From positions 21,098 through 85,097 of the forward strand of contig CAYWET010000006.1 of NCBI GenBank assembly GCA_964457245.1: 64,000 nt of DNA. Direction: 5' to 3'. Under the pieces are notes generated by a model that did no database searches, was not told where the DNA came from, and saw only the letters and a list, made by a program, of their open reading frames with translations. Shown here piece by piece: positions 330 through 21,400 of this stretch. The stretch's first letter is position 1; each line of letters opens with the position of its first letter. The translations under genes were made by a program, and so were the position numbers. This DNA comes from an uncultured Chryseobacterium sp. (GTDB lineage Bacteria > Bacteroidota > Bacteroidia > UBA10329).

Positions 330-3300
330 CTATTGTGCTCCAAGTTTGGATTTCAAACTCTCAATCTCCAACTGTTGTTTCTCCGTGGTTTCAATTAGCT
401 TACGGATGAGTTCTGAAAGTTCTTCGTCTTCGTGAGATTGAGCACTCGGAACCGAGGATGCAACGGGTTTTCCACTTTTCAGAGCTTCTATTTGTCGCTG
501 CTGTTCTTTCATGGCTTCCACCAAAATTGGAGTTACCTTACCGTAGTCCACGGTGAGTAGGTTTTCTCCATCAATTTGACCTACAACCTCGGGGAAAAGC
601 TTCTGTAGGTCTTGCGCAATGAACCCTAGGTGATTCTTGTTCTTTTCAGGGTTTTCTTCATTGTAAGGTGCGGTGCCTGGCTTAATGTCATACGTGTATG
701 CTTTCAATTGTAGTAACTTATCCAAAGCGGACGAGGAAGACAACGGCCTTAGATTTTCCTTGACTGCTAAATCAGAGAAATAGTAATATCCAGACACGGC
801 ATAGTGGTAATAAGCCCAAACCGAATACCAGTAATTCTGGAGACGTCCTATCTGGCCATGGTTAGCAGACTGGGTCCTGAGAGTGGTTCTACCATCATCG
901 TTGGAAACATAAAAGTCTTGCCCTGTTGGTAGGTCAACCCGAAGTCGGTCAATAATGTTGACCACATCTGCACCTGTGCCATTCGCATCTTCTGCATATA
1001 TGGTGTTCACGGTAAGGTTGTTTACATCCCACACATTATAGTCTTGTAAGCGGATGTCACGCCACATGGTAAGCCCAGCTTCGTTGAATTGCGCAGTTTG
1101 TGACTCACCGTTGTTCGCATAAATTCTTACACCACCATAATCGCCATGAGCAGAAAGCTTGATACCCGTATGGAAACGTATCATCAGGTCTGGATAGGGA
1201 TGTGACCAACCACCGGCTTCCTGATAGATTGCGTATGCGCGATCTACACCGTGCCAACCGATTCCAAGGTCTCCATGATTGGGAGTTACGTTTGGCTTGA
1301 CCATCATCCAGTTGTTGTTGAGGTTCAATGTGGTTGTTGCGGTGTGGTTACCAAGATTGTCACCATAACTTCCTACGTTTCCGGTGGTGATCAGTTCGGT
1401 CCAGCCAGTAGTTCCGCTTCCGTTGGTTTTTCTGAACCAAAGCCGTTGATCATAAAAGCTGCCAGCAATCTGCATAGCATAATTATTGCCCGAATTACTG
1501 TGTCGAGAGTCGATAAGGTGCCACCAACCAGATGATCCTGTTGGGTATCCTTCTCCAGCACTGGCAGAACTGGTTTCGTAGAATCCAGATAGAACACCGT
1601 CTGTGTTTCCATAAAGTGTGTTATTATCCCTTGTTTGGGTTCTGGAGCTGTTGTTACCATAGAAGAGGTTTCCTTCAAGCTCAAGGCCGAGGTTATTGGA
1701 TTGCCAATCGAAGAAATGGATTCTTCGGTTTGAGTATGGAAGACCAGCAATATTATAGTTCTGTGCCAAGCGCATTGTTCCTTCGGCCACCCCACCGTTA
1801 TGGAATGATATAGTAGCTCGGTTTCCGGTTGTACTTGTATTTTCTGCAATTGCCAGTGTGTAGTCTCCACCACTGCAACACTCAGTTGCTCCATCTCTGG
1901 TCAGTGTGGTTTGACCATGAACATCAAAAGTTGAACTAGGGTCCATGGTTCTTACCCCAACTCGCTTGTTAAGCCCATCCAACGTAAGAACTTGATCGGT
2001 CGCATTGATATTCGAGTGTGGATTTGTTCGTCCTCCAGTATTTGCATAGCCGAAGTCGAGGTAATGCATTCGGTTGCCCCAGTTACCTTGATTCACAACG
2101 AATTTTCTGTAGTCGGCTGCGTTACTCGGGTTATATGATGCAAATGTCAATGTACTGCCATGACTATTATTGGCCTGACTAGAGGCAATAACAACATCAC
2201 TGTAAGAAGAGGATACCACTAATTGTCCTCTACCATTGGCGGATCCTGGAGTTTCTATTCCTGTGAATAGGTTTTGACCACCACCTCCACCACTTTGGTG
2301 AATGTTGGTTCGACCCATTACGTGCAACATGGAGACAGGGGCGGTTGTGCCAATTCCCACATATCCTGTGTTCGCTTTAACACGGATTCTTTCATTTGTT
2401 CCATTGGCGTATAGTCTTAGATCCGCGCTTGCCCCACCAGAACTGTTGTAGTTCAAATACATACCGTCTTGATATGATGTGGAGTTATTCTGAATGACAC
2501 GAAGATTGCCATACACATCTGCACCTGAACCGAAAATTACATTGGTATTATCCAATCGGTAGGCATTCTCGACATTTGCAAGCCCATTGATCCAAAAATC
2601 TGCGGTTTGAGCCGAGCCGAACTGATTCCAGATGTATCCAGCGTCATTATTGGGAACATCAGTAGTAGGATACAGCGTTCCATTATTATCGGCCATAAGG
2701 ATACGATTACCACCGCCAGCAAGGCTTTCGACCTGAAGACCCGCAGACCCCGCAGTTCCCCCTCCCGCAGCGCGATACGTGTCGTTGATGACAACGTTCG
2801 ATCCGGCAGGAGGCGAAAGATGAATGTTCGCGTTGGCTGAGACCACCCTACCTTGAATCACCATGTCTCCCCAACCAGAACCTCCGATGGGGTAGGGGTC
2901 TGATGTGGAACCACAGTTTACACAATCAAAAAACAAGGAACCATTCAAGGTCATGTGACCACCATTGCTGATGGAAGCAACAGGAGTAGTTCCGTTAACA
3001 CCCCAGGTCCAACCACGATCACCTTGCGCATCGTTGTTCATGTTCATTTTGATGCTATAGTCTTGAACATCCCCGTACTGGTATTCCCCAGTGTTACCCA
3101 TAGAGATCTTGTAGTCGTTGCTACTCCAGAATCGAAGACCGTAGCCATTAGCGGCTCGCATATCGAGGTGGTTGATGTTATCAATCTCATTGTTGTTCAT
3201 GTTCAGAGTACCCGTGGCAGTATGATTACCAAGGTTATCGCCCATCCCGGTTCCGACCAGTGAAGAAAGATTTACAAGGTCCCCATCTGCATCAGAAATT

Positions 3301-4937
3301 ATCAGTTGGTTGGCACTCGAAAGTCCCGAAACGCGAATGCCACCTCCTAGGATGTCCAATTTTCGGCCAGGAGAGGTTGTTCCCACCCCAACATTACCCG
3401 AGTTGAGCGACATGACATGTGTGCTTCCTGACGTAACCGTATTGTACTGGGTTCCATCTGTCACATAAAAATCGATGGCGTTATTGGTTGAACCACCAGA
3501 GCTATTATGTCGAGTATGGATGAAATGTTGGAAGGCATCATCCCCATCATAACCGAAGGCTATCTGAGCTCCATTAGCAAAGGTGCTCTGACCATTTCCA
3601 CCTCTAAGTCCAAGAGTGGCTCGGGTATCTGTGTTAGACCCATTTACAACCAATTTGTTCTGAATGCCTGTGCTTAGACCGATTCCGACTTGCTGAGTAT
3701 TGTTGATACGCATGGCCTCACCACCTGCTGTTGAAAGCCTTATCTGGTCTTCGTCTGCAGTTGCTTCGACTTCTACTTTCGTGTCGCCATCATCATCAAC
3801 TAGAACTCTTCTCAACGGATCCAAATCAACTGTTTGAAGACCACCGGCATCGTCTTCCACCTGTAGTTGCAGGTCGGTTCCGCTCAAAGAAAATGTAGTA
3901 ATCGCTTGATCATCGGTATTATCAGCAAACTGTGACAGATCCAAGGTTTGATTGGCCTGTCCGTCATCTTCCAGCGAAATATTGAGGGTATTTCCCGAAA
4001 GGGAAAGTACATCGATAGTTTGGTCATCAGTATTATCGGCAAAACCGGAAAGGTCAATGGAGTGGGTGGCCTGTCCATCATTCTCCAAAGAAAGTTGTAG
4101 CGTGTTTCCACTCAGTTGAACCACATCGAACTGCTGCTCATCGGTATTGTCCTTGTACGGAGAAAGGTCGAGCACATGAGTGGCCTGGCCATCAGCCTCT
4201 AAAGAGAGTCGAAGTTCATCCGAAGTGATGTTAATTACATCGAACTGCTGGTCGTCCGTGTTGTCCATGAATTGCGATAGGTCCAAAGTTTGAGTAGCCT
4301 GTCCGTCATCTTCCAACGAGATGTTCATTGTATTTCCTGTCAGAGAAAGAACATCAATTGCCTGATCATCAGTATCCACGGCCAAACTGCTGAGGTCCAC
4401 GACATGTGTTGCAAGACCGTCATTCTGAAGAGACAGTTGCAGGTTAGTACCAACCAATTGTACCACATCGAACTGTTGTTCATCGGTGTTGTCCAAGTAA
4501 CCGGAGAGGTCGAGGACGTGGGTTGCTTGCCCGTCATTTGAGATTGAAAGCAGCAATTGGTTTGAACCGTTAATGGACACCTGATCGAACTGCTGGACGT
4601 CTGTATTGTCCAAGAAAGAACTCAGATCGATACTGTGTGTTGCCTGTCCGTCATTCTCGACAGATATTTCAAGGTCGGTTCCGTTGAGTTGAATGACATC
4701 TAACACCTGATCGTCTGTGTTTGCGTTGAGCGTTATCCACTGGGTTCCATCATGGAACTGGAAAGCAGTGCCGGTCCATCGCAATGAACCTGCTGATCCG
4801 GTTGTGGTGCTACCGACCTTGATGGCCCCGGCCACATCGAGTTTCTGTTGCGGAGCTGCTATATCTACGCCCACGTTCTGTGCGAATGAGACACTTAAAG
4901 AACCAGCAAATATTGTGAGTAAAAAGAGCTTTTTCAT
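330..4937 (-). CDS. Giant secreted tail-fibre-domain protein, 1535 aa. It has a signal peptide, 8 x 38-aa Asp-rich repeats, beta-rich VGIGTT-motif region and a C-terminal intramolecular-chaperone (peptidase S74-like) domain.
   Basis: Single uninterrupted ORF. N-terminus MKKLFLLTIFAGSLSVSFAQ is a signal peptide. The repeats have the form ...DLSxxxDNTDDQ. VGIGTTAPVSMLHV is a tail-fibre hallmark. The C-terminus FSDLAVKENLRPL...GFIAQDLQKLFPEVV matches the phage endosialidase/tail-spike chaperone motif (S-D-x-x-x-K-E-N-I/L) plus GFIAQ. Confidence 0.85.
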   Translation of the reverse strand: MKKLFLLTIFAGSLSVSFAQNVGVDIAAPQQKLDVAGAIKVGSTTTGSAGSLRWTGTAFQFHDGTQWITLNANTDDQVLDVIQLNGTDLEISVENDGQATHSIDLSSFLDNTDVQQFDQVSINGSNQLLLSISNDGQATHVLDLSGYLDNTDEQQFDVVQLVGTNLQLSLQNDGLATHVVDLSSLAVDTDDQAIDVLSLTGNTMNISLEDDGQATQTLDLSQFMDNTDDQQFDVINITSDELRLSLEADGQATHVLDLSPYKDNTDEQQFDVVQLSGNTLQLSLENDGQATHSIDLSGFADNTDDQTIDVLSLSGNTLNISLEDDGQANQTLDLSQFADNTDDQAITTFSLSGTDLQLQVEDDAGGLQTVDLDPLRRVLVDDDGDTKVEVEATADEDQIRLSTAGGEAMRINNTQQVGIGLSTGIQNKLVVNGSNTDTRATLGLRGGNGQSTFANGAQIAFGYDGDDAFQHFIHTRHNSSGGSTNNAIDFYVTDGTQYNTVTSGSTHVMSLNSGNVGVGTTSPGRKLDILGGGIRVSGLSSANQLIISDADGDLVNLSSLVGTGMGDNLGNHTATGTLNMNNNEIDNINHLDMRAANGYGLRFWSSNDYKISMGNTGEYQYGDVQDYSIKMNMNNDAQGDRGWTWGVNGTTPVASISNGGHMTLNGSLFFDCVNCGSTSDPYPIGGSGWGDMVIQGRVVSANANIHLSPPAGSNVVINDTYRAAGGGTAGSAGLQVESLAGGGNRILMADNNGTLYPTTDVPNNDAGYIWNQFGSAQTADFWINGLANVENAYRLDNTNVIFGSGADVYGNLRVIQNNSTSYQDGMYLNYNSSGGASADLRLYANGTNERIRVKANTGYVGIGTTAPVSMLHVMGRTNIHQSGGGGGQNLFTGIETPGSANGRGQLVVSSSYSDVVIASSQANNSHGSTLTFASYNPSNAADYRKFVVNQGNWGNRMHYLDFGYANTGGRTNPHSNINATDQVLTLDGLNKRVGVRTMDPSSTFDVHGQTTLTRDGATECCSGGDYTLAIAENTSTTGNRATISFHNGGVAEGTMRLAQNYNIAGLPYSNRRIHFFDWQSNNLGLELEGNLFYGNNSSRTQTRDNNTLYGNTDGVLSGFYETSSASAGEGYPTGSSGWWHLIDSRHSNSGNNYAMQIAGSFYDQRLWFRKTNGSGTTGWTELITTGNVGSYGDNLGNHTATTTLNLNNNWMMVKPNVTPNHGDLGIGWHGVDRAYAIYQEAGGWSHPYPDLMIRFHTGIKLSAHGDYGGVRIYANNGESQTAQFNEAGLTMWRDIRLQDYNVWDVNNLTVNTIYAEDANGTGADVVNIIDRLRVDLPTGQDFYVSNDDGRTTLRTQSANHGQIGRLQNYWYSVWAYYHYAVSGYYYFSDLAVKENLRPLSSSSALDKLLQLKAYTYDIKPGTAPYNEENPEKNKNHLGFIAQDLQKLFPEVVGQIDGENLLTVDYGKVTPILVEAMKEQQRQIEALKSGKPVASSVPSAQSHEDEELSELIRKLIETTEKQQLEIESLKSKLGAQ
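3794..4706 (-). repeat. In-frame tandem array of 8 x 114-bp (38-aa) Asp-rich repeats inside the giant gene
   Basis: Periodic protein motif [FIL]D[VL]xxLxGxxLxLSLExDGxATHxxDLSxYxDNTD(D/E)Q counted 8 times. Confidence 0.8.
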
Positions 4938-5361: not shown

Positions 5362-8300
5362 TTATCTCCCTTCTTCCGCTGGAAATGAATTTTCTTCTTC
5401 AACCGGAGCCTCTAGCGGTGCTGGCGTAAGTGACGGTTTAGCGTCTTTTACAGAATCCTCAACAGGAATTTCCACGTTTTCCAAAGCATTTTCAGGAGGA
5501 AATACACCACCAGACCACGGAGCAGTAGGGTCTTCCATCGGCTCATAGAACTCATCACCTAATCGTTCAATTTCCTTCGGATGTTCTTTGGTTAACGCCT
5601 CATGTTCTGCTGTTTCCAACATGTCGACGAATCGTTCTGAGTATTTGTTGGATGCAAGTGCCTCTTCATCCTCTGGTATTCTGGCCATTGCAATCCAGCT
5701 GAACGGAACACTCTCTGACTCGGATTTATCTACAAAAAAACCGGTTTGATCGATATTGGATACCGAAGGGTTAAAATTACCGCTGCCACCCATGGCAGAA
5801 ACGGTGACCACCGGTTGAGCACCATTAAGTGACGCGATGAACTCTGGAGAGAACTCAACTCGAGCACGCTGTCCATCTATCACATCAACACCAAAATCCT
5901 TAATGTTTCTAAGCTGTTTTTCAATTGCTTGGAGCTCTTTTTTCAAAATCTTCAGAGCCCCAGTATTATATATCGAGAGTTCGCCATAGAGTACGCCTTT
6001 CTTGCCAGGCGTAGTTAAGGCGCCTGGAGTTTCCTCCGCTATAAAACCTACCTGAACAGCATCACTGAAGCCTTTTGTAGTTCCCTCATCCTTGTACTTG
6101 TAATAGTTTAGGTTGAGATCATCCATAAAAGCCCATGCGCTCTCGTAATCTTCGTTATCAAATGGATGGATGTTTTTTTTCTTGTCTCGGGTACTCAGAT
6201 AACCATAGGTGGTGGCATACACATAACCTTGCGCATAAACGGAGTAATTTGCACCAGAGAACTGTCCGTTCCAGTAACCGTTGGTGGCGCTGATGGAGTA
6301 TATAACCGTTTGGTTAGGGCAGTATGGGTGAAAAGCGTAGCTACCAGCAGTATTGTTGATGTGTACCGACTTGTTACCATAACTTCTTATCCATGTGCCG
6401 TCAGACATTTGCCAACCACCTCCGTACGAACCATTGTACCAGCCCGTACTGTTGTAGCTGCGATGCCATCCGGCACCATCGTCAATTACGGTCAGACCAT
6501 CAATTACGGAGCTTCCTGCAGCAACAATGGATACTGTACCAGGCTGTGCTGGATTGGCACTGTATCCGTTATTGTTCCAGTCAATGAAGATGGGGAAGTT
6601 AGCATCTCCACCATTACTTACGCTGGCAACGTCACTTCCGCTTCTTCTGAATCGGGCAATTTCCGATGAGTTATTACCAGAGGCAAAGTAGAATCTGTTA
6701 GAGTGATATTCTAATTTTCCTTCATCAGCGCCTGGGTTGCCCGTCCAAGACTCATTACCCTCTTCATCAAAATATAGGTTAGGAGAATATCCGTCATCGT
6801 TTCTTGTGCGAAGTTGCCATTGTCTGGCCGCATTCAGCCAACCCTGCCAGTCTGCGGTCCAGTGCATATAGCTTCTGGTACCAGTACTATTCATAAGAGC
6901 CAATCCACCAGAACCATTGCCCGTTCTGATGTTGATGTCGGAATTGTTTCGCGGATAAATGTGCCAACCGTTATTGCTCCAAAGAACACCGTCATTGTCG
7001 CTATGACGTTGCCAGTTGCTCAGGTAAAAATCGGTTACACCATTAACTACGTTGTTTTGCACGTTGAGGGTTGTGGTACCTAAGTGGTTACCTAGGTTGT
7101 CGCCAAGACCCGAACCATTCAGGTTGGCTACGGTATATAGATCTCCCGCAGCATTGGCCATGGTAATTCGGTTTCCGGAACCAGCCAGACCAGTAATTCT
7201 AACGGCATCGTTAAGCAAGAGGGTTCCGCCATCGTTGGCAATACCGGCCCTAGCATACATTTGATTCTGTGAATAGAACGTTCCTCCATTGTTGTACATA
7301 CCTGTTCGGAACTCTGTAAGCGTGGCACCTCCATTTCTGTATGATGCGATTTCCGGATAACTATCATTGAAGGTGACGCTCATGTGGTCATTAACATCCT
7401 GTGCATCTTCCATGTCAACACCTGCGGAGAACGCCAATGATGCGTAGCCATCATTACGATCATAAATACCACCATCGTCAGAAATGTGAATACCACCACC
7501 AGTTGCATTATTGTTTGATACTTTAAGTGACTTTTCAATCTGCATAGCACCCGCGGTGTTCAACGCGGCAACTGGCGTTACACCATAAACACCCCAAGTC
7601 CAGCCCCGTCCGGCTGTGTTACTCATGTGCATCTTAATGCTGTAATCGGTTACAGGCCCGAAATGATATTCTGAGCTGTTTCCCATTCCAATAGCGTACT
7701 GGTTATCTGACCAGAACCTAAGACCACGGCTAGTCCCAGGGGTAATGTCCAAATATCCGACATTGTCCAACTCGTTGTTACTCATGTTCAGATTGGTTGT
7801 GGCTGTATGGTTTCCGAGATTGTCTCCCATTCCAGAAGGCACGCTGGTGGCGCCAACGAGATTTCCAGAGTTGTCCGTTGTAACCAACCTTGTTCCGCCA
7901 CCAGTTAGACTTGAAATTCTGGTTGTTCCAACCACCTCCAATTGTTGATTCGGACTCAAAGTTCCGATTCCAACGTTGCCAGAATTCATTGACATGGCAT
8001 GAGTGCTACCACTCGTCACGGAGTTGTTCTGGGTTCCATCGCTTACATAGAAATCGATAGAATTGTTTGTTGAACCTCCAGAACTGTTATGACGTGTTTG
8101 AATGTAGTGCTCGTAGTCGTCAGCACCATTGTATCCAAAGGCAATCTGCGCACCATTATTGAAGGTGAATTGCTCGTTTCCACCAAGAAGGCCAAGAGTT
8201 GAAGAAACATCTGACGTGCTGCCATTAACAACCAATCGGTTACTGATACCAGAAGACAACCCAACACCCACTTGCTGGGAAGAGTTAATAATCATAGCCT

Positions 8301-9999
8301 CAGTTCCATCGGTGGTAAACCGAATCTGATCCTCATTCGGGTTTGCCTCAACCTCAACGCGTGTGTCTCCGTTGGCGTCTTTTAGAAGTCTTCTTAATGA
8401 TTCCAGATCTACGCTTTGGGCACCTCCAGCATCAGATTCAACCTGAACAGAAAGAGTTGTCCCGCTGAGAGAAAGGTTCGTAATTTTTTGGTCATCTGTA
8501 TTGTCCAAATAGCCGCTGAGATTGACTGATTGTGGGCCCACACCATCATTTTCGAACTCCATTGTGAGGGCATTCCCCGCTAATATCGCGAAGGTCTCGA
8601 TCTGTTGATCGTCTGTATTGTCCAGATATCCTGAAAGATCGAAGCTATGAGTTGCGGCACCATCGTTTTCCAGCGATAGCTGAAGGGTGTTTCCAGAAAG
8701 TTGAACCACGTCCAACGCTTGGTCATCAGTGTTGTCAAGGTAGCCGGAAAGGTCAATGCTGTGGGTTGCAACACCATCATTCTCCAACGATACTTGAAGT
8801 GTATTTCCAGAGAGTTGGATTACGTCAAGCCCTTGGTCGTCTGTGTTGTCTAGATATGGCGAAAGACTCAAAACGTGAGGCGCTACACCATCATTTTCTA
8901 TGGACAAACGCAAGTTATTGGAAGAAATGTCCACAAGGTCAAATGCTTGATCATCTGTGTTGTCTAGGTAACCGCTAAGATCCAAGGTGTGGGTGGCCTG
9001 ACCATCATCTTCAAGTGAGAGTCGCAATTCATCAGATGTAATGTTGATCACATCAAACGTTTGGTCATCTGTATTGTCCGAGAAACCGCTCAAATCAATG
9101 TTGTGAGTTGCCTGCCCATCATTCTCAAGGGATAACTGCAGGTTCGAACCCACAAGTTGACCAACATCCAGACCCTGTTCATCTGTGTTGTCCTTATAGG
9201 GTGAAAGGCTAAGAACATGCGTTGCCTGCCCGTCACCTTCAACCGAAAGGCGAAGCTGGTCTGACGTAATATTTGCAACGTCCAACTTCTGATCGTCCGT
9301 ATTGTCTGCAAGACTGCTGAGGTCAATTATCTCAGTAGCTACTCCATCATCCTCAAGGGACAATTCAAGATTGGTTCCATTAAGTTGAGCGACATCCAAT
9401 GTCTGATCATCGGTATCAGTACCAATACTACTAAGGTTAATAACATGAGTTCCAACACCATCGTTCTGCAACGAAAGCTCTAAGTTGGTTCCCGAGAGTT
9501 GAACCACATCAAGTTGCTGTTGATCCGTATTGTCGAGATAACCAGAGAGATCCAAAACATGAGTAGCCTGCCCGTCCCCCTCAATAGACAGTAACAGCTG
9601 ATTAGCACCATTGATGGTTACCTGATCGAACTTCTGGTCATCAACATTGTCAAGATATCCACTCAGGTCAATGGAGTGCGTGGGCACACCATCAGCCTCA
9701 ATTGAAATCTCGAGATCGGTTCCGTTCAATTGGATTACATCGAATATTTGGTCGTCAGAATTTGAGTTCAATACAATCCAAGAGGTGCCATCGTGGAACT
9801 GAAGTTCTGTTCCGGTCCAACGTATGGAGCCAGCAGAACCCGATGTGGTATTTGCGATTTTCACAGACCCATTAACATCTAACTTCTGTTCGGGAACAAG
9901 TCTGTCTAGACCCAAATTCTGTGCTGATAAACCACTGCTGAAGCAGAAAAGCACCGTTAGTATGAGATAAATTCGATTCATATCTATGATTTTTTGCAA
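5362..9999 (-). CDS. Giant secreted tail-fibre-domain protein paralogue, 1545 aa. It has 12 x 38-aa repeats, a C-terminal S74-like chaperone motif (STRDKKKNIHPF) and a further acidic/Pro-rich extension of roughly 250 aa.
   Basis: Single ORF. Signal peptide (start possibly at the internal Met, MNRIYLILTVLFCFSSGLSAQ). The repeat block is homologous to the neighbours. Middle and C-terminal regions align by eye along their length with the ORF at 10034..14659. Confidence 0.85.
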   Translation of the reverse strand: MQKIIDMNRIYLILTVLFCFSSGLSAQNLGLDRLVPEQKLDVNGSVKIANTTSGSAGSIRWTGTELQFHDGTSWIVLNSNSDDQIFDVIQLNGTDLEISIEADGVPTHSIDLSGYLDNVDDQKFDQVTINGANQLLLSIEGDGQATHVLDLSGYLDNTDQQQLDVVQLSGTNLELSLQNDGVGTHVINLSSIGTDTDDQTLDVAQLNGTNLELSLEDDGVATEIIDLSSLADNTDDQKLDVANITSDQLRLSVEGDGQATHVLSLSPYKDNTDEQGLDVGQLVGSNLQLSLENDGQATHNIDLSGFSDNTDDQTFDVINITSDELRLSLEDDGQATHTLDLSGYLDNTDDQAFDLVDISSNNLRLSIENDGVAPHVLSLSPYLDNTDDQGLDVIQLSGNTLQVSLENDGVATHSIDLSGYLDNTDDQALDVVQLSGNTLQLSLENDGAATHSFDLSGYLDNTDDQQIETFAILAGNALTMEFENDGVGPQSVNLSGYLDNTDDQKITNLSLSGTTLSVQVESDAGGAQSVDLESLRRLLKDANGDTRVEVEANPNEDQIRFTTDGTEAMIINSSQQVGVGLSSGISNRLVVNGSTSDVSSTLGLLGGNEQFTFNNGAQIAFGYNGADDYEHYIQTRHNSSGGSTNNSIDFYVSDGTQNNSVTSGSTHAMSMNSGNVGIGTLSPNQQLEVVGTTRISSLTGGGTRLVTTDNSGNLVGATSVPSGMGDNLGNHTATTNLNMSNNELDNVGYLDITPGTSRGLRFWSDNQYAIGMGNSSEYHFGPVTDYSIKMHMSNTAGRGWTWGVYGVTPVAALNTAGAMQIEKSLKVSNNNATGGGIHISDDGGIYDRNDGYASLAFSAGVDMEDAQDVNDHMSVTFNDSYPEIASYRNGGATLTEFRTGMYNNGGTFYSQNQMYARAGIANDGGTLLLNDAVRITGLAGSGNRITMANAAGDLYTVANLNGSGLGDNLGNHLGTTTLNVQNNVVNGVTDFYLSNWQRHSDNDGVLWSNNGWHIYPRNNSDINIRTGNGSGGLALMNSTGTRSYMHWTADWQGWLNAARQWQLRTRNDDGYSPNLYFDEEGNESWTGNPGADEGKLEYHSNRFYFASGNNSSEIARFRRSGSDVASVSNGGDANFPIFIDWNNNGYSANPAQPGTVSIVAAGSSVIDGLTVIDDGAGWHRSYNSTGWYNGSYGGGWQMSDGTWIRSYGNKSVHINNTAGSYAFHPYCPNQTVIYSISATNGYWNGQFSGANYSVYAQGYVYATTYGYLSTRDKKKNIHPFDNEDYESAWAFMDDLNLNYYKYKDEGTTKGFSDAVQVGFIAEETPGALTTPGKKGVLYGELSIYNTGALKILKKELQAIEKQLRNIKDFGVDVIDGQRARVEFSPEFIASLNGAQPVVTVSAMGGSGNFNPSVSNIDQTGFFVDKSESESVPFSWIAMARIPEDEEALASNKYSERFVDMLETAEHEALTKEHPKEIERLGDEFYEPMEDPTAPWSGGVFPPENALENVEIPVEDSVKDAKPSLTPAPLEAPVEEENSFPAEEGR
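8394..9747 (-). repeat. In-frame tandem array of 12 x 114-bp repeats in the second giant gene
   Basis: The same 38-aa unit counted 12 times. Confidence 0.8.
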
Positions 10000-10033: not shown

Positions 10034-13000
10034 TTACTTACGACCACTTTCAATATCCTTTTCTCTTGCCGGATATGGATCCATTTCTTCGTCTTTAACA
10101 GGAGGGTCCAACGGAATCGGCTCTAATGATGGACCAGCATCCTTTACCGAGTCGTCAACAGGAACTTCAGCCGACTCAAATGCATTGCTTGGAGGGAATT
10201 GCCCACCTTCCCAAGGGGCTGTTGGGTCTTCATGCTGCTCGTAGAACTCCGCAGGCATTGGCTCGATTTCTTCTGGGTGTTCTTTTGTTAGCGCCTCGTG
10301 CTCAGCCGTTTCCAGCATATGGACAAACCTTTCGGAGTATCCTTTGGCCTCCAAAGCATCTTCGGTTGGCACCTTCGCCATGGCAATCCAGTTAAATGGA
10401 ACAGAGCCTTCCTTGGTTTTATTGACGTAGAAACCTGACTGATCAACCTCAGTAACCAAGAGGTTAAATGTTCCGTTGCCACCCATAGCGGTTACCGTGA
10501 CCACAGGTTGAGCACCATTCAAGGTTGAAGTGAAATCTGAGGAGAATTCTACCCTAGTTCTTTCATTTTCGATTTGCTCCACACCAAAGTCGCTTACGCT
10601 ACGTAGTTGCTCTTTGATATTCTTCAATTTTTTCTTGATAACCTTTAGAGCCCCAGTGTTGTAAATCGCCAACTCCCCATAGCGAACCCCAGTTTTTCCG
10701 GGGGTTGTGAGCGCTCCAGGAGTTTCTTCAGCCATAAATCCAACGTGTACGGCATCGCTGAAGCCTTTAGTTGTCCCTTCATCCTTGTACTTATAGTAGT
10801 TCAGTTCAAGGTCATCCATAAAAGCCAAAGCGCTTTCGTAGTCTTCGTCCTCAAATGGTCTTATGTCTTTTTTCTTCTCACGGGTACTTAGGTATCCATA
10901 AGTAGTAGCATATACATACCCTTGCGCATAGACTGAATAGTTGGCCCCAGCAAAGTAACCGTTCCAGTAACTGTTGGTTCCACTGATGGAATAGATTACT
11001 GTATGGTTAGGACTGTAAGGGTGGAATGCATAATACCCGCTTCTGTTAATATGAACGGATTTATTCCCGTAAGAACGAATCCATGTGCCGTCAGACATGT
11101 GCCAACCACCACCGTAAGAACCATTGTACCATCCAGTACCACCGTAGCTTCGATGCCAACCACCACCATCATCAATAACGGTGTTTCCATCAATCATGAA
11201 ACCACCAGCAGTGTAGACTGAAGGGTTACTTGCTGGATTAAGATAGTAGCCTGTATTGTTCCAGTCTCTAAAGATTGTGAAGATTGCCTCACCACTGTTG
11301 GTTACTCTACCCACATCGCTACCACTTCTTCTAAACCGTGCAATTTCTGTTGAATTGCTACCAGAAGCGATGTAAAATCTATTAGAATGATACTCGATTT
11401 TTCCTTCATCCGCTCCTGGGTTACCTGTCCACGATTCATTGCCTTCCTCATCGAAGTAAAGGCTCGGAGAATAGCCATCCAGATTCTGGGTTCTCAACTG
11501 CCACTGGCGTGCGGAGTTCAACCAACCTTGGTATCCACTATACCAGTGCAAATAACCACGTGTACTTCCGCCATTCATTAGAGCCACGCCACCAGAAGTT
11601 CCATTACCCGTTCGAAGGTTCATGTCAGAACTGTTTCTTGGATAAATGTGCCAAGCGTTATTGCTCCAGTAAATACCATCATTGTCGCTATGACGCTCCC
11701 AGTTGCTCAAATAGAAATCCGTCACACCATTTATAACGTTATTCTGCATGTTGAGCGTAGTGGTTCCCAAATGGTTTCCAAGATTGTCGCCCAGTCCTGT
11801 TCCGTTCAGGCTGCTAGTTGTGTAAAGGTCGCCCGATGGGTTTGACATTACTATTCTGTTACCAGTTCCGGCCAGACCTGTAATTCTAACAGCGTCATTG
11901 AGAGTAAGCGTTCCCTGATCATTGGCGATTCCAGCTCTCGCATACATTTGATTTTGAGAGTAGAAAGTTCCACCATTATTAAATATCCCGGTTCTGAACT
12001 CCGTAAGAGTGGTACCGTTGTTTCGGTAAGACCATATTTCCGGGTAACTATCGTTGAATCGAACTTCCAAGTGATCGGTAGCATCTTGAGCATCTTCAAA
12101 ATCGACCCCAGCAGAAAACGCAAATGACCCGTAAGCATCATTTCTATCATAAATACCACCATCATCCGACAGAATCAATCCTCCTCCCGTGGTGTTATCG
12201 TTGGATACCCGCAAGGAACCTTGTATCTGCATTTCACCAGATGTATTGATTGCAGCAACAGGCGTTTGACCGTCAACACCCCAGGTCCAACCTCTGCCGG
12301 CAGTATTGCTCATATGAGATTTAATGCTGTAATCAGTAACCGGGCCGTAACGATATTCCGTAGCGTTCCCCATGGCTATTGCATAAGAATTACTTGACCA
12401 AAAGCGAATACCCCGTCCATTTCCAGGAGTTATATCCACATAACCAGCATTATCTATTTCGTTATTATTCATGTTAAGGTTGGTGGTAGCTGTGTGGTTT
12501 CCAAGGTTGTCACCCATCCCGGCTGGAACGCTTGTAGCCGCCACCAGGTCTCCTTGGTTGTTGGTGGTCACTAGTCGTGTTCCACCACCAGCTAAACTTG
12601 AAACACGAGTTGTTCCGATTACATGTAGTTCGGTTTGCGGGTCTGTTGTCCTAACCCCAACATTTCCAGCATTTAGAGATAGCACATGCGTTGATCCACT
12701 TGTTACGGAACTAGTTTGAGTGCCATCACTGACATAAAAGTCAATTGCGTTGTTTGCAGCGGCACTGTTGTGTCTCGTGTGAATAAAGTGCTGATATCCA
12801 TTGGTTCCGTTGTATCCGAAAGCAATCTGAGCCCCATTGTTAAACGTGGTCGAGCCATTACCACCGCGCAGTCCGAGAACGGATGTAGCGTCTGAACCGG
12901 TTCCATATACCGCAAGCTTGTTATTGATGCCGGTTGAAAGCCCGATTCCTACTTGCTGTGAGGGATTAATAATCATCGCACCAGCGCCATCGGTTGTGAA

Positions 13001-14659
13001 ACGAATCTGGTCTTCATTCGGGTTTGCCTCAACTTCAACTCGGGTGTCACCGTTGGCATCACGAATCAATCTTCTCAACGGATCTAAATCAACGTTTTGA
13101 GCACCACCCGCGTCAGACTCTAGTTGCATCGTTAATGTGGTCCCGGACAAAGAGAAATCAGTAATCGACTGGTCGTCTGTATTGTCAAGGTAGCCACTAA
13201 GGTCAACAGTTTGAGCTGCCTGCCCATCATCCTCTATTTCTAACGAAAGCGTGTTTCCTGACAGGGAGAAGTTGTCTATCGTTTGATTATCTGTGTTGTC
13301 CAAATAAGGGGAAAGGTCGATACTGTGAGTTCCTACCCCATCATTTTCAATAGAAAGTTGGAGTGTGTTTCCAGAAAGCTGAATCACGTCAAAAACCTGA
13401 TCATCGGTATTGTCTAGGTATCCTGAAAGGTCGATGCTATGTGTTCCTACCCCGTCATTTTCAATGGAAAATTGGAGTGTGTTTCCAGAAAGCTGGATTA
13501 CATCAAAAACCTGATCATCGGTATTATCCAAGTATGGACTAAGGTCTAAGATATGAGGGGCAACCCCATCATCTTCGATTGACAAACGAAGATTGTTAGA
13601 GTTAATATCGATAAGATCGAAGGCTTGGTCGTCCGTGTTATCCAAATATGGGCTCAGATCTAAAACATAAGAAGCTTGACCATCATCTTCCAATGAAAGT
13701 ACTAGTTGGTGAGAAGCATTGATGGTGATGACATCAAAAACCTGATCATCTGTATTGTCAACAAAACCGCTCATGTCAATCACATTAGTAGCAACACCAT
13801 CCCCTTCGATAGACAGCTCCAAGTTATTACCAACCAACTGAATTATATCGAAAATCTGATCATCCGTGTTATCGAGATATGGACTAAGGTCCAATACATG
13901 CGTAGCTTGGCCGTCATCCTCTAAAGACAGACGCAGTTCATTCGAAGTAATGTTAACCACGTCAAACTGCTGATCATCGGTATTGTCAGCCAAACTGCTA
14001 AGGTCAATCACTTCAGTGGCTACACCGTCATCTTCTAACGAAAGCTCCAGGTTTGTTCCATTGAGCTGTGCAACATCAAACGCTTGATCGTCCGTATCCA
14101 CAGCCAAACTGCTGAGGTCAATCACGTGAGTTCCAACCCCATCGTTTTGAAGTGATAGTTCCAAATTGGTTCCGTTCAATTGTACAACATCAAATTGCTG
14201 CTCATCTGTGTTGTCCAGGTAACCAGAGAGGTCAAGAACATGTGTAGCCTGACCATCATCTTCCAATGAGAGCAAAAGCTGGTTCGACCCGTTTATGGAA
14301 ACCTGATCAAAGGTTTGATCATCGGTGTTGTCCAAAAAACTACTTAGGTCGATGGTATGCGTGGCCTGGCCATCATTTTCAATGGAGATTTCGAGATCAT
14401 TCCCGTTAAGTTGGATGACATCTAGCACCTGATCATCCGTATTTGCATTCAGCGTAACCCACTGTGTGCCATCATGGAACTGGAATTCTGTTCCCGTCCA
14501 CCGTAAAGATCCGGCAACGCCATTGGTTGTGCTACCAATCCGAAGCGCACCGGCCACGTCTAATTTTTGTTGCGGAGAGGCAACATCGACACCAACATTT
14601 TGAGCGAATGTGAAGCCAGACGATAGAAGAAGAGAGACTGCTAGGTAAAAATGTTTCAT
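10034..14659 (-). CDS. Giant secreted tail-fibre-domain protein paralogue, 1541 aa. It has 12 x 38-aa repeats, an S74-like chaperone motif and a C-terminal extension.
   Basis: Single ORF. The N-terminal ~75 aa and the first repeats are near-identical to ORF 330..4937. The middle and C-terminus resemble ORF 5362..9999. Only 35 bp separate its stop from the start of the downstream paralogue, so the two are probably co-transcribed. Confidence 0.85.
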   Translation of the reverse strand: MKHFYLAVSLLLSSGFTFAQNVGVDVASPQQKLDVAGALRIGSTTNGVAGSLRWTGTEFQFHDGTQWVTLNANTDDQVLDVIQLNGNDLEISIENDGQATHTIDLSSFLDNTDDQTFDQVSINGSNQLLLSLEDDGQATHVLDLSGYLDNTDEQQFDVVQLNGTNLELSLQNDGVGTHVIDLSSLAVDTDDQAFDVAQLNGTNLELSLEDDGVATEVIDLSSLADNTDDQQFDVVNITSNELRLSLEDDGQATHVLDLSPYLDNTDDQIFDIIQLVGNNLELSIEGDGVATNVIDMSGFVDNTDDQVFDVITINASHQLVLSLEDDGQASYVLDLSPYLDNTDDQAFDLIDINSNNLRLSIEDDGVAPHILDLSPYLDNTDDQVFDVIQLSGNTLQFSIENDGVGTHSIDLSGYLDNTDDQVFDVIQLSGNTLQLSIENDGVGTHSIDLSPYLDNTDNQTIDNFSLSGNTLSLEIEDDGQAAQTVDLSGYLDNTDDQSITDFSLSGTTLTMQLESDAGGAQNVDLDPLRRLIRDANGDTRVEVEANPNEDQIRFTTDGAGAMIINPSQQVGIGLSTGINNKLAVYGTGSDATSVLGLRGGNGSTTFNNGAQIAFGYNGTNGYQHFIHTRHNSAAANNAIDFYVSDGTQTSSVTSGSTHVLSLNAGNVGVRTTDPQTELHVIGTTRVSSLAGGGTRLVTTNNQGDLVAATSVPAGMGDNLGNHTATTNLNMNNNEIDNAGYVDITPGNGRGIRFWSSNSYAIAMGNATEYRYGPVTDYSIKSHMSNTAGRGWTWGVDGQTPVAAINTSGEMQIQGSLRVSNDNTTGGGLILSDDGGIYDRNDAYGSFAFSAGVDFEDAQDATDHLEVRFNDSYPEIWSYRNNGTTLTEFRTGIFNNGGTFYSQNQMYARAGIANDQGTLTLNDAVRITGLAGTGNRIVMSNPSGDLYTTSSLNGTGLGDNLGNHLGTTTLNMQNNVINGVTDFYLSNWERHSDNDGIYWSNNAWHIYPRNSSDMNLRTGNGTSGGVALMNGGSTRGYLHWYSGYQGWLNSARQWQLRTQNLDGYSPSLYFDEEGNESWTGNPGADEGKIEYHSNRFYIASGSNSTEIARFRRSGSDVGRVTNSGEAIFTIFRDWNNTGYYLNPASNPSVYTAGGFMIDGNTVIDDGGGWHRSYGGTGWYNGSYGGGWHMSDGTWIRSYGNKSVHINRSGYYAFHPYSPNHTVIYSISGTNSYWNGYFAGANYSVYAQGYVYATTYGYLSTREKKKDIRPFEDEDYESALAFMDDLELNYYKYKDEGTTKGFSDAVHVGFMAEETPGALTTPGKTGVRYGELAIYNTGALKVIKKKLKNIKEQLRSVSDFGVEQIENERTRVEFSSDFTSTLNGAQPVVTVTAMGGNGTFNLLVTEVDQSGFYVNKTKEGSVPFNWIAMAKVPTEDALEAKGYSERFVHMLETAEHEALTKEHPEEIEPMPAEFYEQHEDPTAPWEGGQFPPSNAFESAEVPVDDSVKDAGPSLEPIPLDPPVKDEEMDPYPAREKDIESGRK
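13075..14428 (-). repeat. In-frame tandem array of 12 x 114-bp repeats in the third giant gene
   Basis: The same 38-aa unit counted 12 times. Confidence 0.8.
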
Positions 14660-14838: not shown

Positions 14839-15630
14839 CTAGAATGGGCTGATACCAATGCCGATAGAGACTGGAATGGCTTTCGTGCCTCGTCCTTCAA
14901 CAAAAAGTGGTGTCAGAGAATAAAAAACGTTCAAGTAGAAATTCGCATAGCCCACCCGGGCGGTTAACCCGTAACGAAATTTGGTGAGGTTTGGGATGTC
15001 ATAGGTTTTAATCTTCCGACCAAAGTTCACGCCTTGGTAAAAATAGTCGTCTTCTACCTTGGTTTTGGTGTGACTTTGTACAAGCCAGCCAAGTTTAAAT
15101 CCGACTGAAGCCGCTATACGCTTGCCATTTTTATGGGGCTTTGATCGAAAACGAACTTCAACAGGAATATCAATAAAGTTGGTACTCAACTTATTGACGG
15201 TGATACTTTGACCATCGAAAAATTTAGCATCCAGATGTGTGTATGTTGAACCATTTGTGGTCGGATGCTCGATTGGGAATGCCTCCATGTGAATGTTGTG
15301 CGAGTTGAACCCAATACCACCCGCAACGCTGAAAACACTTTTGGCAATTACGTAGTCGTAAAGGACCGCAACATCCACTCCCCTAGATGAAAACCACTTT
15401 GGTTCCACGGTAGAAGGATGGAATAACCAGCTGTCAAAATTCAGGTTAACCAGAACCATTTCCTTCTTTGGTGGCTTCCGTTTTTTCTTTGGTTTTTCGT
15501 CTGCCACGGTGGACGTTGAGGTTTCTTGAGCGAAAACAGCCGAAGCGCTTAAGATTAGCAAGAAGAATATAAAAAGAGCTCTCCGCATAAGAAGTTGAAC
15601 AAAGATAGTCGAAGGACTTTGCTTAGTCAT
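14839..15630 (-). CDS. Outer-membrane beta-barrel (porin-family-like) protein; the true start is probably the internal Met (MRRALFIFF...).
   Basis: Signal peptide. Lys-rich linker. Alternating hydrophobic beta-strand pattern. C-terminal aromatic residue (ends ...GISPF). Confidence 0.55.
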   Translation of the reverse strand: MTKQSPSTIFVQLLMRRALFIFFLLILSASAVFAQETSTSTVADEKPKKKRKPPKKEMVLVNLNFDSWLFHPSTVEPKWFSSRGVDVAVLYDYVIAKSVFSVAGGIGFNSHNIHMEAFPIEHPTTNGSTYTHLDAKFFDGQSITVNKLSTNFIDIPVEVRFRSKPHKNGKRIAASVGFKLGWLVQSHTKTKVEDDYFYQGVNFGRKIKTYDIPNLTKFRYGLTARVGYANFYLNVFYSLTPLFVEGRGTKAIPVSIGIGISPF

Positions 15631-17374
15631 TTGAGTTCGGATTCCATTCTAATTCAAAATCCCAGTTGGCTCGCACCTCTGCTGAGGATTGAATAACTCG
15701 AATAGGCTCCGGTTGTAGCTTTTCGGAGTACCGACCGCTATCCCATTTGCCATTGCCGTTCAGGTCGCGGATTACATTAACTGAGTAGTTCCCGGCATCT
15801 AATTGCTCAAATTTCACCACCCCGGATTCAGCTACGCTTCGAACGTCAACTAACTTTCCAGCGGAGGTGAGCAGTTCTACTAAAACTGGTGATGCAGGAG
15901 TTTCTGTCACCTTTAAGCTTAGCGACCCGAACATGTCTTTGTCCGTGCCAACAAATGAATACTCAATAGTGTCATTCCAAAACCCGTAGATATCGGTGAA
16001 AGCGGAATCAAGAATAAATAGTCGATACCGTTTTCCTGCCTGCCACGTATAGGCGAGGTCAAACCTACGGAGTGCCTTATCGCTGGTAGTTATATCATAC
16101 TTTACGCGTACCGAATCCTCGTAAAGTTTCATTCTGGAGATGTCCAAACCAAGTATCGGGTGATTCCACACTAAAGTAAACGGAGTACCGGGTTTAGGTG
16201 GTCGATTGTTGCCTGGAATGGAAGAAGCGGTAAGACTAAAGACCGCCTCTTTACGCCCTCTAGACGCTCCTCTGCCCTTTGTTGCCTTTGGGTTTGTCCC
16301 AGTTAACTTGGGGCGTTCTTTCATTACCAATTCCACGGTGTCTGGCACCTTTTCGTTTACGGAAACAAGAAAATTCATCGTATCCGGTACAATATCAGTT
16401 ATCCAAACGGTCACCGAATCTTGGGTTGTGCTGACGTCTTCCAATCGCCATTGTTTTTTAGAACTGAACCCAGTCAAATTCAAATCAAATGTCTTTACCG
16501 GTAGATTGTAAATGAAGACCAGCTTACCGTATTGATCGCAGTAAGTTTTCTTTAGAAATTGAGTCGTGTCATCCTCAACAAACATGGTCATGTTGTAACT
16601 AGTAATAGGTGGTTCATTCTGAAGATTCAATGAATCAATAGCCAAAGAATCCACCGCTAAAGAATCAATGGAGGAGGAATCAATTACCGCTGGTTGAGGC
16701 GGGGAAAATGGTTTGATAAGAGTATCTAGAAACCCAATTTTTTCTGTGGGAACGTCAAACTTGTAGTTGGCGTTTTCATCCTTCAATGCAAAAATTTTGT
16801 ACCACTGATTCGCCACATTTTTGATGTGGTACTGACCGTTTTCATCTGTGCGAGTGAAATAGTCCGGAATGGTGTCCAACGGCAATGAATCAACATCATT
16901 TTTGTAAAGCATGACCAACGCATCTGCTTCCGGCTTGCCCGTTAAAACATCCGTCAGCTGACCTTTTACCTGCATGCTATCGAGATGACTCCCCGTGCTG
17001 AATACGTAAGTGTAATTCTGTAGAATGTTGCCTTCGTTATTGTCTCGAATTGCCTCGCCAAAGTTGATAGTGTAAGTAGTGTTTTCTGTGAATGGTTCCT
17101 CGAACTTTACTATCAGCGACTTCTTTTTGAACTGATAAGAAGGCGACTTGAGAATCGGTGGAGAAATGACCACTTGATCAGAAGCAGAGCGCAACTGAAT
17201 GTATTCATCAAACGCAATTTCTATTTGCTGACCCTCAAAGTTTGTAGAAAGGTTGGCGGGTTTTTCATAAAGAACGGCTGGTGGAGTTGTGTCCTTCGGG
17301 CCGCCAGTAGGAGCAACCTGCTGAGCACAACCGAACAGCAACAGACCACCGAATATGAGCAGCTGCCGTCTCAT
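15623..17374 (-). CDS. Lipoprotein with an N-terminal Ig-like (SbsA/Big_5-like) domain
   Basis: Lipobox LLLFGC. PPAVLYEKPANLSTNF...IEIAFDEYI is typical of Bacteroidota Ig-like-domain lipoproteins. 583-aa uninterrupted ORF. Confidence 0.5.
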   Translation of the reverse strand: MRRQLLIFGGLLLFGCAQQVAPTGGPKDTTPPAVLYEKPANLSTNFEGQQIEIAFDEYIQLRSASDQVVISPPILKSPSYQFKKKSLIVKFEEPFTENTTYTINFGEAIRDNNEGNILQNYTYVFSTGSHLDSMQVKGQLTDVLTGKPEADALVMLYKNDVDSLPLDTIPDYFTRTDENGQYHIKNVANQWYKIFALKDENANYKFDVPTEKIGFLDTLIKPFSPPQPAVIDSSSIDSLAVDSLAIDSLNLQNEPPITSYNMTMFVEDDTTQFLKKTYCDQYGKLVFIYNLPVKTFDLNLTGFSSKKQWRLEDVSTTQDSVTVWITDIVPDTMNFLVSVNEKVPDTVELVMKERPKLTGTNPKATKGRGASRGRKEAVFSLTASSIPGNNRPPKPGTPFTLVWNHPILGLDISRMKLYEDSVRVKYDITTSDKALRRFDLAYTWQAGKRYRLFILDSAFTDIYGFWNDTIEYSFVGTDKDMFGSLSLKVTETPASPVLVELLTSAGKLVDVRSVAESGVVKFEQLDAGNYSVNVIRDLNGNGKWDSGRYSEKLQPEPIRVIQSSAEVRANWDFELEWNPNSND

Positions 17375-19546: not shown

Positions 19547-21400
19547 TTGAAGAATCTCTCAGCACCTCTTTCTCTTGTTGCAGGGGCGTTTGCCTTTGCT
19601 GTTGTGCTAGCTACAGCATTTGTTTGGTTTCCTCCCAACATTATTTCTTGGGATGTATTCGGGTACTATCTGTATCTACCAATGACCTTCATTTATAATG
19701 ACCTACGGTTACAAGATGTGACAGTAGTACAGGGTATTGTTGAACAGTACAATGTGTCATCAACATTTTATCAGGCGTTTTCACTTCCCAATGGTAATTG
19801 GGTAATGAAATATTCTGCCGGCATGGCCATTCTTTACCTACCGGCATTTGTCTTCGGTCATGTAATGGCGTTAATGACTGAATACCCAGCCGATGGCTTC
19901 TCTTGGCCGTACCAGCTGGGAATGTTCATTGAGGTGATGATCATTGCCGGATTATCTATCTGGTATTTGAGAAAACTGCTTCTGCGCTTCTTCAATGATA
20001 AGATGGTTGCCATGTTGATTCTGCTGGTGATTGTTGGCACTAACTATCTCATCAACACATCATACATCGGTGCGGGCGCTGGAACGCACAATTATCTGTT
20101 CTTGATCTATTGCTTCATTGTGATTCTGACAATGGAGTACCACGAGCACTTCAGACAGCGTGATATTATTCTTCTTGGAATTGCCTGTGGTATGGCAATC
20201 CTCTCACGGCCATCGGAAATTGTATGCCTGCTAATACCGCTATTCTGGGGAGTTACCTCGCAAGAGGGGCTTCGCGAAAAGGTTTTATTGTTCAAGAAGC
20301 ATTGGAAGCACTTGGCGGTTTTCAGCGCTGTGGTTGTGGCTATTGGATCTGTTCAGCTTTTCTATTGGAAATACGTCACCGACTCGTTTTTCCACTACAG
20401 CTACGGTGGTGGTGCAGGCTCGTCTTTCAACTTTTTACAACCGCATACGCTAAAGGTGCTTTTCAGTTATAGAAAGGGCTGGTATCTATACACGCCAATG
20501 ATGTTGCTGGCCACCATTGGGCTGATTGTTGCTCTGAGAAAAAAACTGAATGGTTCGTGGAGTTTTGGGCTGTATTTTCTGTTCAACCTTTGGATTGTTT
20601 CAAGCTGGCATTGCTGGTGGTATGCCGAAAGCTTTGGGCAACGTTCGCTGGTTCAAAGCATGCCTATAATGGCTGTGGGGCTTGGTTACCTCTTCAATAG
20701 CGTAAACCGTGACTGGCTGCGGAAAGGACTGATGTCTTTAGGGGTTTTACTTCTGCTGTTAAACCTATTTCAATCTTACCAGTTCAGCTATTGGATCATT
20801 GACCCATCTCGACAGACAGGTAAATACTATTGGGCTTCGTTTTTTGATCTTTATCCATCAGGGAAACATGAACGTCTTAAGCTGGTTCAGCGTGATGGCC
20901 TTGGAAAGGCAAACTTTGGGTCGGAGTCGGACTATTACCATTTCGAACATGCAACATTTGATTATGAAGGAGGTCTGTTAACCGAGCGGGTACAATTGGA
21001 CTCTACCGTTGTTAAAGACGGGAAATACAGTGCTTTTCTTACTGGGGAATTTTCAGATCAACATCTGGTCAAGTTCAATGACCTGACTACTGGTCATTAC
21101 GTTTGGTTTAAGGTTTCCGTAGACGTTTTTCCGCTAAAGGAACTTCAAGAACATCCGTTTTCATTGGTTATGTGTACAAATTATGGAGATGATTCATATA
21201 AGTACCAAGCGTTGGATTCAGAAGGTCTTGAGCTCAAGAACGGGCAGTGGAACAAGATTAGCATGCTCTATCTGAGTCCAGAAATGAGGACTAATACAGA
21301 TCCGATTAAGGCGTACCTATGGAACAGAGGAGGCAATCAAATGTATATGGACAACTTCAAGTTGGAGGTGTATGTTCCCAAATTTGACCCAGAACGCTAG
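19547..21400 (+). CDS. Polytopic membrane protein (possibly glycosyltransferase-39/ArnT-like) with a C-terminal soluble domain
   Basis: 617-aa ORF with many hydrophobic helices in the first ~430 aa and a C-terminal beta-rich domain. Confidence 0.4.
   Translation: MKNLSAPLSLVAGAFAFAVVLATAFVWFPPNIISWDVFGYYLYLPMTFIYNDLRLQDVTVVQGIVEQYNVSSTFYQAFSLPNGNWVMKYSAGMAILYLPAFVFGHVMALMTEYPADGFSWPYQLGMFIEVMIIAGLSIWYLRKLLLRFFNDKMVAMLILLVIVGTNYLINTSYIGAGAGTHNYLFLIYCFIVILTMEYHEHFRQRDIILLGIACGMAILSRPSEIVCLLIPLFWGVTSQEGLREKVLLFKKHWKHLAVFSAVVVAIGSVQLFYWKYVTDSFFHYSYGGGAGSSFNFLQPHTLKVLFSYRKGWYLYTPMMLLATIGLIVALRKKLNGSWSFGLYFLFNLWIVSSWHCWWYAESFGQRSLVQSMPIMAVGLGYLFNSVNRDWLRKGLMSLGVLLLLLNLFQSYQFSYWIIDPSRQTGKYYWASFFDLYPSGKHERLKLVQRDGLGKANFGSESDYYHFEHATFDYEGGLLTERVQLDSTVVKDGKYSAFLTGEFSDQHLVKFNDLTTGHYVWFKVSVDVFPLKELQEHPFSLVMCTNYGDDSYKYQALDSEGLELKNGQWNKISMLYLSPEMRTNTDPIKAYLWNRGGNQMYMDNFKLEVYVPKFDPER

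Follow-up and report, generated by a model that had tools for sequence, protein, structure and literature searches.

In two of three tandem surface-fibre proteins of a Bacteroidota cell, the S74-type intramolecular chaperone (IMC) is followed by an extension whose first 76 aa have the predicted fold of an H-type lectin. As far as we found, the combination of these known parts is new: a lectin foot placed beyond an S74 self-cleavage site, conserved in at least 54 protein clusters. S74 chaperones are usually regarded as disposable C-terminal ends. No literature combining an H-type lectin with an intramolecular chaperone or with S74 was found, within an incomplete coverage of the literature. We consider it on balance probable that the two proteins, p1 and p2, carry a composite C-terminal pro-region, from which cleavage would release an IMC-lectin-tail fragment serving as a glycan-binding tether or as a second product.

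Three tandem fibre genes on a cellular chromosome

The window, meaning the whole 64,000-nucleotide stretch of DNA that was analysed, contains three tandem paralogues of ~1,540 aa each:

5362..9999, minus strand: p1, S74 fibre paralogue (stop codon 5362..5364)
10034..14659, minus strand: p2, S74 fibre paralogue
330..4937, minus strand: p3, S74 fibre paralogue
8618..8895 (p1) and 13284..13576 (p2), minus strand: 38-aa repeats with the motif DNTDDQ…L.LS.E.DG
14839..17374, minus strand: OMP_b-brl_2 outer-membrane β-barrel (263 aa) and Big_5/CarboxypepD_reg protein (583 aa), directly upstream of the fibre genes

Each paralogue has an N-terminal signal peptide, DNTDDQ-containing tandem repeats and a long Gly/Asn/Thr-rich body. 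The TRF repeat period in p1 and p2 is 114 nt (38 aa), and the translations show ~13-15 copies in these two proteins and fewer in p3; thus, the paralogues vary in repeat number and central body, besides the C-terminus. Note that the p1 ORF begins at TTG 9999 (LQKIIDMNRIYL…; window 9981..9999, minus strand), from which p1 residues are counted throughout. Since its orthologue on a metagenome contig begins MNRIYL…, the real start is probably the ATG at 9981, which would give a protein of 1,539 aa.

The neighbours in the window (OMP β-barrels, DUF6089, aminopeptidase P, class V aminotransferase, SdhA) are ordinary chromosomal genes, so p1, p2 and p3 are surface-fibre genes of a Bacteroidota cell and not part of a prophage. 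A 205-kb metagenome contig (L001) is syntenic with this locus and also carries the three paralogues. There the order of the OMP_b-brl_2 and Big_5/CarboxypepD_reg genes is also kept, but it is not at the more distant loci L007 and L008; the two genes may encode an export or anchoring partner of the fibres that is restricted to this lineage. Across the loci compared, no accessory gene is conserved beside the fibre genes. Further along the window, a 617-aa ORF (19547..21400, plus strand) has no Pfam match, and neither does the syntenic L001 gene, of 523 aa.

The S74 chaperone is not the C-terminus of p1 and p2

The C-terminal features of the three proteins are the following:

5902..6219, minus strand: p1 IMC, residues 1261-1366, with a helix at its end (…LKILKKELQAIEKQLRNIK), from the local IMC profile
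10595..10912, minus strand: p2 IMC, residues 1250-1355, from Pfam S74 and the local IMC profile
6193..6195, minus strand: p1 putative autocleavage serine S1269, motif YLS-TRDKK
6178..6180, minus strand: p1 partner lysine K1274, five residues past S1269
10886..10888, minus strand: p2 putative cleavage serine S1258, with partner lysine K1263
5365..5898, minus strand: p1 extension, 178 aa, starting after the IMC
10037..10591, minus strand: p2 extension, 185 aa, starting after the IMC
333..794, minus strand: p3 canonical C-terminus (control), IMC 1382-1489 followed by a 46-aa helical end

All three proteins match Pfam Peptidase_S74 (PF13884) above its gathering score of 22 bits: p1 with 23.5 bits (residues 1271-1324), p2 with 25.3 bits (1259-1313) and p3 with 55.8 bits (1388-1452). 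Four independent alignments agree that the p1 IMC ends at about residue 1366, namely those to T5 pb1, to PHROG profiles, to p3 and to a local IMC profile that was constructed from the family by iteration; the phmmer alignment of p1 to the T5 pb1 fibre and chaperone (6f45) stops at about residue 1369. PHROG tail-protein profiles match p1 in the IMC portion only, and the E-values for the p1 and p2 IMCs (1e-4 to 9e-3) contrast with that for p3 (5e-24), whose strong PHROG tail-fibre matches reach the profiles' C-termini. Thus p3 and the PHROG tail-fibre profiles terminate with the IMC, whereas in p1 and p2 a further 178 and 185 aa follow it. The alignments do not show an S74 domain spanning the whole C-terminus.

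From the S74 serine to the end there are 277 residues in p1, 284 in p2 and 150 in p3. This agrees with the initial annotation, which had placed an extension in two of the three paralogues: p3 stops 150 aa after the serine and has no such segment, and the lectin-like domain profile does not match it. The peptide strings quoted for the extension can also all be read in the two translated ORFs, 5362..9999 and 10034..14659 (both minus strand). The proposed length of ~250 aa proved too large. The extension measures ~180 aa, and ~45 of the 250 aa belong to the IMC, an overcount that arises because the Pfam S74 model stops ~55 aa into the chaperone; in p1, 222 aa separate the end of the VGFIAEE motif from the stop.

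The dyad formed by the serine and the lysine five residues later is invariant across the alignment of full-length IMCs (53 of 53), which includes all those that bear the lectin domain. Because of this invariance, it is a reasonable inference that the extension is released together with the chaperone, and a loss of proteolysis in this family appears unlikely.

The extension begins with a lectin-type β-sandwich

The ~180 aa behind the IMC comprise a 76-aa β-sandwich, ~29 aa of acidic helices and a disordered tail of ~75-80 aa:

5671..5898, minus strand: p1 H-type-lectin-like β-sandwich, residues 1368-1443 (DFGVDVIDG…FSWIAMARIPE)
10364..10591, minus strand: p2 H-type-lectin-like domain, residues 1357-1432 (domain profile E 9e-50)
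5584..5670, minus strand: p1 acidic helical segment, residues 1444-1472 (…YSERFVDMLETAEHEALTKEH), helices in the AF2 model
5365..5583, minus strand: p1 disordered acidic Pro-rich tail, residues 1473-1545, with the DPTAPW.GG motif
10037..10363, minus strand: p2 acidic helices (1433-1461) and Pro/Glu-rich tail (1462-1541)
5503..5529 (p1) and 10187..10213 (p2), minus strand: EDPTAPW.GG.FPP motif in the disordered tail

The description of the whole extension as acidic and Pro-rich holds in full for the tail (D+E 26% and Pro 16% in p1; 28% and 19% in p2) and in part for the helices, which are acidic (D+E 28-31%, 31% in p1) and contain no Pro. It does not hold for the first 76 aa, an ordinary globular domain, so that this character is confined to the final ~100 aa.

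With a 66-sequence alignment, AlphaFold2 modelled the extension as a monomer with a mean pLDDT of 90.2, and with values above 94 across most of the β-domain; the single-sequence model of the 302-aa C-terminus reached a pLDDT of 32. In the model, two helices (residues 84-89 and 94-109 of the model, pLDDT ~75-88) come after a small β-sandwich. The 76 aa thus fold alone with high confidence in the prediction, as a lectin-type β-sandwich with the small antiparallel architecture of Helix pomatia agglutinin (HPA) and discoidin. The fold relatives, with their scores, are:

7eea, cyanophage Pam1 tailspike: 8.8 (71 aa at 1.8 Å)
6cu2 / 6cl6, R2 pyocin fibre: 7.8
2w94, Discoidin I: 7.8
4ru4, LKA1 gp49: 7.5
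4mtm, AP22 gp53: 7.2
3wmp, coral lectin SLL-2: 6.6
2ccv, Helix pomatia agglutinin: 6.5

Foldseek against the PDB independently recovered the same set, and against viral models it returned tail fibres and proteins annotated with an H-type lectin domain. The pyocin foot, AP22 gp53, the C-terminal domains of LKA1 and phi297, HPA, the discoidins and SLL-2 share one discoidin-like or H-type-lectin-like fold, which is trimeric and binds sugars via variable distal loops (PMC6116203, PMC6363177).

At the level of sequence the affinity is faint. A scan of Pfam and NCBIfam gave no model matching the 76-aa module in p1 or p2; neither protein matches Gp53-like_C or Pfam H_lectin, the latter even at E<=10, and the family profile found no relative by sequence among solved structures. 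Among 66 relatives, 18 match H_lectin weakly (best E 0.001) and 4 match Gp53-like_C. The module consensus, from 69 cluster representatives, reads ISDFG…V.FS..F…L.G..PVVTVTP……L.V……GF.V………F.WIAMAKV; its invariant positions resemble core residues, and no binding-site residue is conserved family-wide. The 76-aa domain is probably a divergent branch of the H-type lectins, one that current Pfam models do not pick up above threshold.

The domain recurs behind chaperones and without them

An exhaustive profile search with the p1 and p2 extension retrieved 71 cluster representatives among 1.84 billion. Two of them, P0059 and P0062, were rejected as repeat or TPR artefacts, which leaves 69 clusters. In 54 of these, at most 10 aa separate the end of the IMC from the module; another 7 are fragments truncated at the N-terminus, and the remaining 8 carry the module without any IMC. 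The domain is thus independent of the S74 domain. Since the p1 IMC ends near residue 1366 and the module occurs alone, the proposal of a separate domain distal to the autoprocessing site was borne out.

Among the IMC-free proteins, P0040 and P0066 are fibre-like with Gly-rich repeats, P0068 is fibre-like with the module at its extreme C-terminus, and P0070 has the N-terminus of the same fibre type. A stand-alone form, for which a search of other genomes had been suggested, does exist: P0052 is a complete gene whose 163-aa product has a signal peptide of its own; it is present on 11 contigs and lies 24 nt downstream of a gene for a 972-aa Gly-rich fibre. At this locus (L009, 2059..6362) it sits between the fibre gene and that of a 274-aa Cys-rich secreted protein; these two share an N-terminal domain (…PRVINYQAKLTDADGVA…), and none of the three products has a Pfam match. 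Together with that fibre gene, P0052 is the unfused counterpart of the fused IMC-lectin fibre proteins. As for other candidates, P0019 resembled an IMC-plus-lectin gene standing alone but is a fragment with a frameshift, from a contig of 1.4 kb, and the remaining short family matches are truncated gene calls; all were rejected.

In a word-index search of proteins, the extension alone gave no match and the 66-sequence profile gave two fragments only. Likewise, a genome scan with the p1 C-terminus found nothing, and one with a closer alignment picked up more distant relatives at 5 loci, in MAGs of Flavobacteriales, Bacteroidia and Chitinophagaceae. At L007 (5302..17678), three tandem fibre paralogues of 1458, 1448 and 1500 aa (P0011, P0028 and P0012) all carry the IMC-plus-lectin extension, and tandem expansion seems typical of these fibre genes. 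Precomputed annotation assigns the N-terminal part of P0003 (L008, 8001..11312) and of P0070 (L013, 832..2949) to PF26696 (PTL_trimer), a family absent from the Pfam release scanned here; this may be the family of the N-terminal head in fibres of this class.

The IMC-free proteins bear on another explanation, that the knob is a retained distal foot. It would then form the tip or base of the mature fibre, with an IMC that does not cleave or with a fragment that stays attached non-covalently. The domain is indeed part of the mature fibre in the IMC-free P0066, P0068 and P0070, and its fold is the receptor-binding foot of the pyocin and AP22 fibres. However, the invariant catalytic dyad in 53/53 IMCs argues that proteolysis has been kept, and the characterised IMCs, of endosialidase and T5 pb1, dissociate once cleaved. 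We regard a retained foot as unlikely.

The extension is under purifying selection

dN/dS was calculated against the orthologues on the 205-kb metagenome contig, that of p2 being P0001:

76-aa domain: p1 0.024, p2 0.063
helices: p1 0.075, p2 0
tail: p1 0.18, p2 0.067
fibre body: p1 ~0.02, p2 ~0.02

The whole extension is coding and under purifying selection, with the tail as the least constrained part. Low dN/dS and the recurrence of the domain in 69 clusters mean that the extension is not a chance feature. Identity between p1 and p2 differs along the proteins:

lectin-like domain: 61%
tail: 66%
fibre body and IMC: 77-80%

Between p1 and p2, the lectin-like domain and the tail have thus diverged most, but between orthologues the domain is 95% conserved.

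These figures matter for the alternative of an enlarged chaperone, in which a knob with no ligand and the tail work as a foldon-like trimerisation and registration clamp, helping a divergent IMC to nucleate a very long fibre, and are discarded with it. The same data are consistent with a role that is structural and no more, that of an additional trimerisation clamp: the fold is trimeric in solved relatives, the domain abuts the terminal helix of the IMC without a linker in 54 clusters, the p1 and p2 IMCs are far more divergent from phage IMCs than that of p3, and ligand-binding residues are not conserved. On the other hand, the domain ends IMC-free fibres and forms a separate secreted protein, where it is no disposable pro-piece, and 61% identity between p1 and p2 against 95% between orthologues better fits a specificity module. 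A clamp and nothing else is in our view possible but rather doubtful. We favour a glycan-binding tether or second product, because the same module serves elsewhere as the end of mature fibres and as a separate secreted protein, and because it has diverged between the paralogues while being held constant between orthologues. Counting against this reading are the missing H_lectin match in p1 and p2, the failure of the family profile to find a solved relative by sequence, the lack of conserved binding residues and the fact that the model is monomeric.

The tails are hydrophilic and show neither a membrane anchor nor a T9SS signal

Family-wide, the domain is followed by 0-200 residues, typically 40-140, which are hydrophilic, charged and often Pro-rich. 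Two motifs mark a p1-like subgroup: the helix motif YS.kF..MLEsAE (MLESAE-like), in 20 of the 71 sequences scanned, and DP[ST]AP(W.GG), in 8 of 71; other subgroups have different helices behind the domain. The EDPTAPW.GG.FPP stretch could be a linear docking motif.

The initial annotation had likened the distal part to released effector or anchor modules. Nothing in it points to an enzymatic or toxic function. As an anchor, the extension would hold the precursor at the membrane as in MYRF, or act as a T9SS C-terminal signal, and cleavage would free the fibre. The architecture, a self-cleaving IMC and then more protein, offers an analogy, and the organism belongs to the Bacteroidota, where C-terminal sorting domains are common. 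But hydrophobic segments are absent from every tail in the family (maximal 19-residue Kyte-Doolittle mean below 1.0; 0.04 in p1 and 0.01 in p2), and a membrane anchor of the MYRF kind was rejected on this basis. The T9SS signal was rejected too: the NCBIfam T9SS-CTD models do not match p1 or p2, and the domain is not at the extreme C-terminus, with ~100 residues trailing it in p1 and p2 and up to ~200 in the family. No accessory gene accompanies the fibre genes from locus to locus either, and we judge any anchoring role of this sort highly improbable.

A model for the composite pro-region

In the model that we prefer, the glycan-binding tether or second product, p1 and p2 would be Sec-exported trimeric fibre proteins whose pro-region consists of an intact S74 IMC, the linkerless 76-aa H-type-lectin or fibre-'foot' β-sandwich, the acidic helix and the disordered Pro/Glu-rich tail. 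The three chains would register at the C-terminus, with the IMC and the lectin-like knob sharing one three-fold axis; such an axis is expected because the terminal helix of the IMC enters the first strand of the lectin fold directly and the fold is trimeric in solved relatives. The fibre would then zip up in the N-terminal direction, and the Ser-Lys dyad would cut before S1269 in p1 or S1258 in p2. One gene could thereby yield two trimeric products, the mature fibre and an IMC-knob-helix-tail fragment of ~30 kDa per chain. Until cleavage, the knob may act as a glycan-binding module that tethers the C-terminal end of the assembling fibre to envelope or target polysaccharide, and after cleavage it may persist as a separate lectin.

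A related proposal, less probable but worth considering, is that, in one lineage of Bacteroidota surface fibres, the S74 IMC has been turned into a built-in maturation switch separating the fibre from a free trimeric lectin that does other work: it could mark or cross-link glycans of the envelope or of prey, or keep hold of the fibre until it is released. It would be a bacterial counterpart of the 'cleave-to-release' logic of MYRF, and P0052 beside its fibre gene would represent the unfused pair.

At least 54 clusters from Bacteroidota-type organisms have a conserved and selected lectin-fold domain beyond the cleavage site, and therefore the 'waste' fragment may be a functional protein. If our reading is correct, it makes a bacterial addition to the few self-cleaving precursors that yield two working products, defines a divergent lectin family below current Pfam thresholds and offers a way into a large, uncharacterised class of environmental Bacteroidota fibre proteins.

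Comparison with known systems

As occurs in the phage S74/IMC proteins, such as K1F endoNF and T5 pb1, p1 and p2 have an S74 match above threshold and a Ser-Lys(+5) pair, placed after a long fibre; p3, within the same array, has the textbook phage-type arrangement. Unlike the IMCs of phage endosialidases and tail fibres, those of p1 and p2 have ~180 residues behind them, are distant in sequence and belong to a cell. The lectin-type feet of pyocin, AP22 gp53, LKA1 gp49, phi297 and Pam1 end the mature fibre, whereas the foot of p1 and p2 lies beyond the cleavage site; R-type pyocin fibres have a separately encoded chaperone. Compared with the H-type lectins (HPA, the C-terminal domain of discoidin I/II, SLL-2; PF09458), p1 and p2 show no PF09458 match and no identifiable sugar-binding residues, and their domain lies between the protease/chaperone to which it is fused and a disordered tail.

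Finally, the MYRF-type ICA proteins of eukaryotes resemble p1 and p2 in having an S74-type self-cleaving trimerisation domain, the ICA domain, that is not C-terminal. In MYRF the segment after the ICA domain is membrane-held: its distal part is a transmembrane helix and a lumenal domain, whereas in p1 and p2 it is a lectin-fold domain with no hydrophobic segment. In both cases the S74-type domain is internal, and cleavage would therefore part two functional portions of one precursor.
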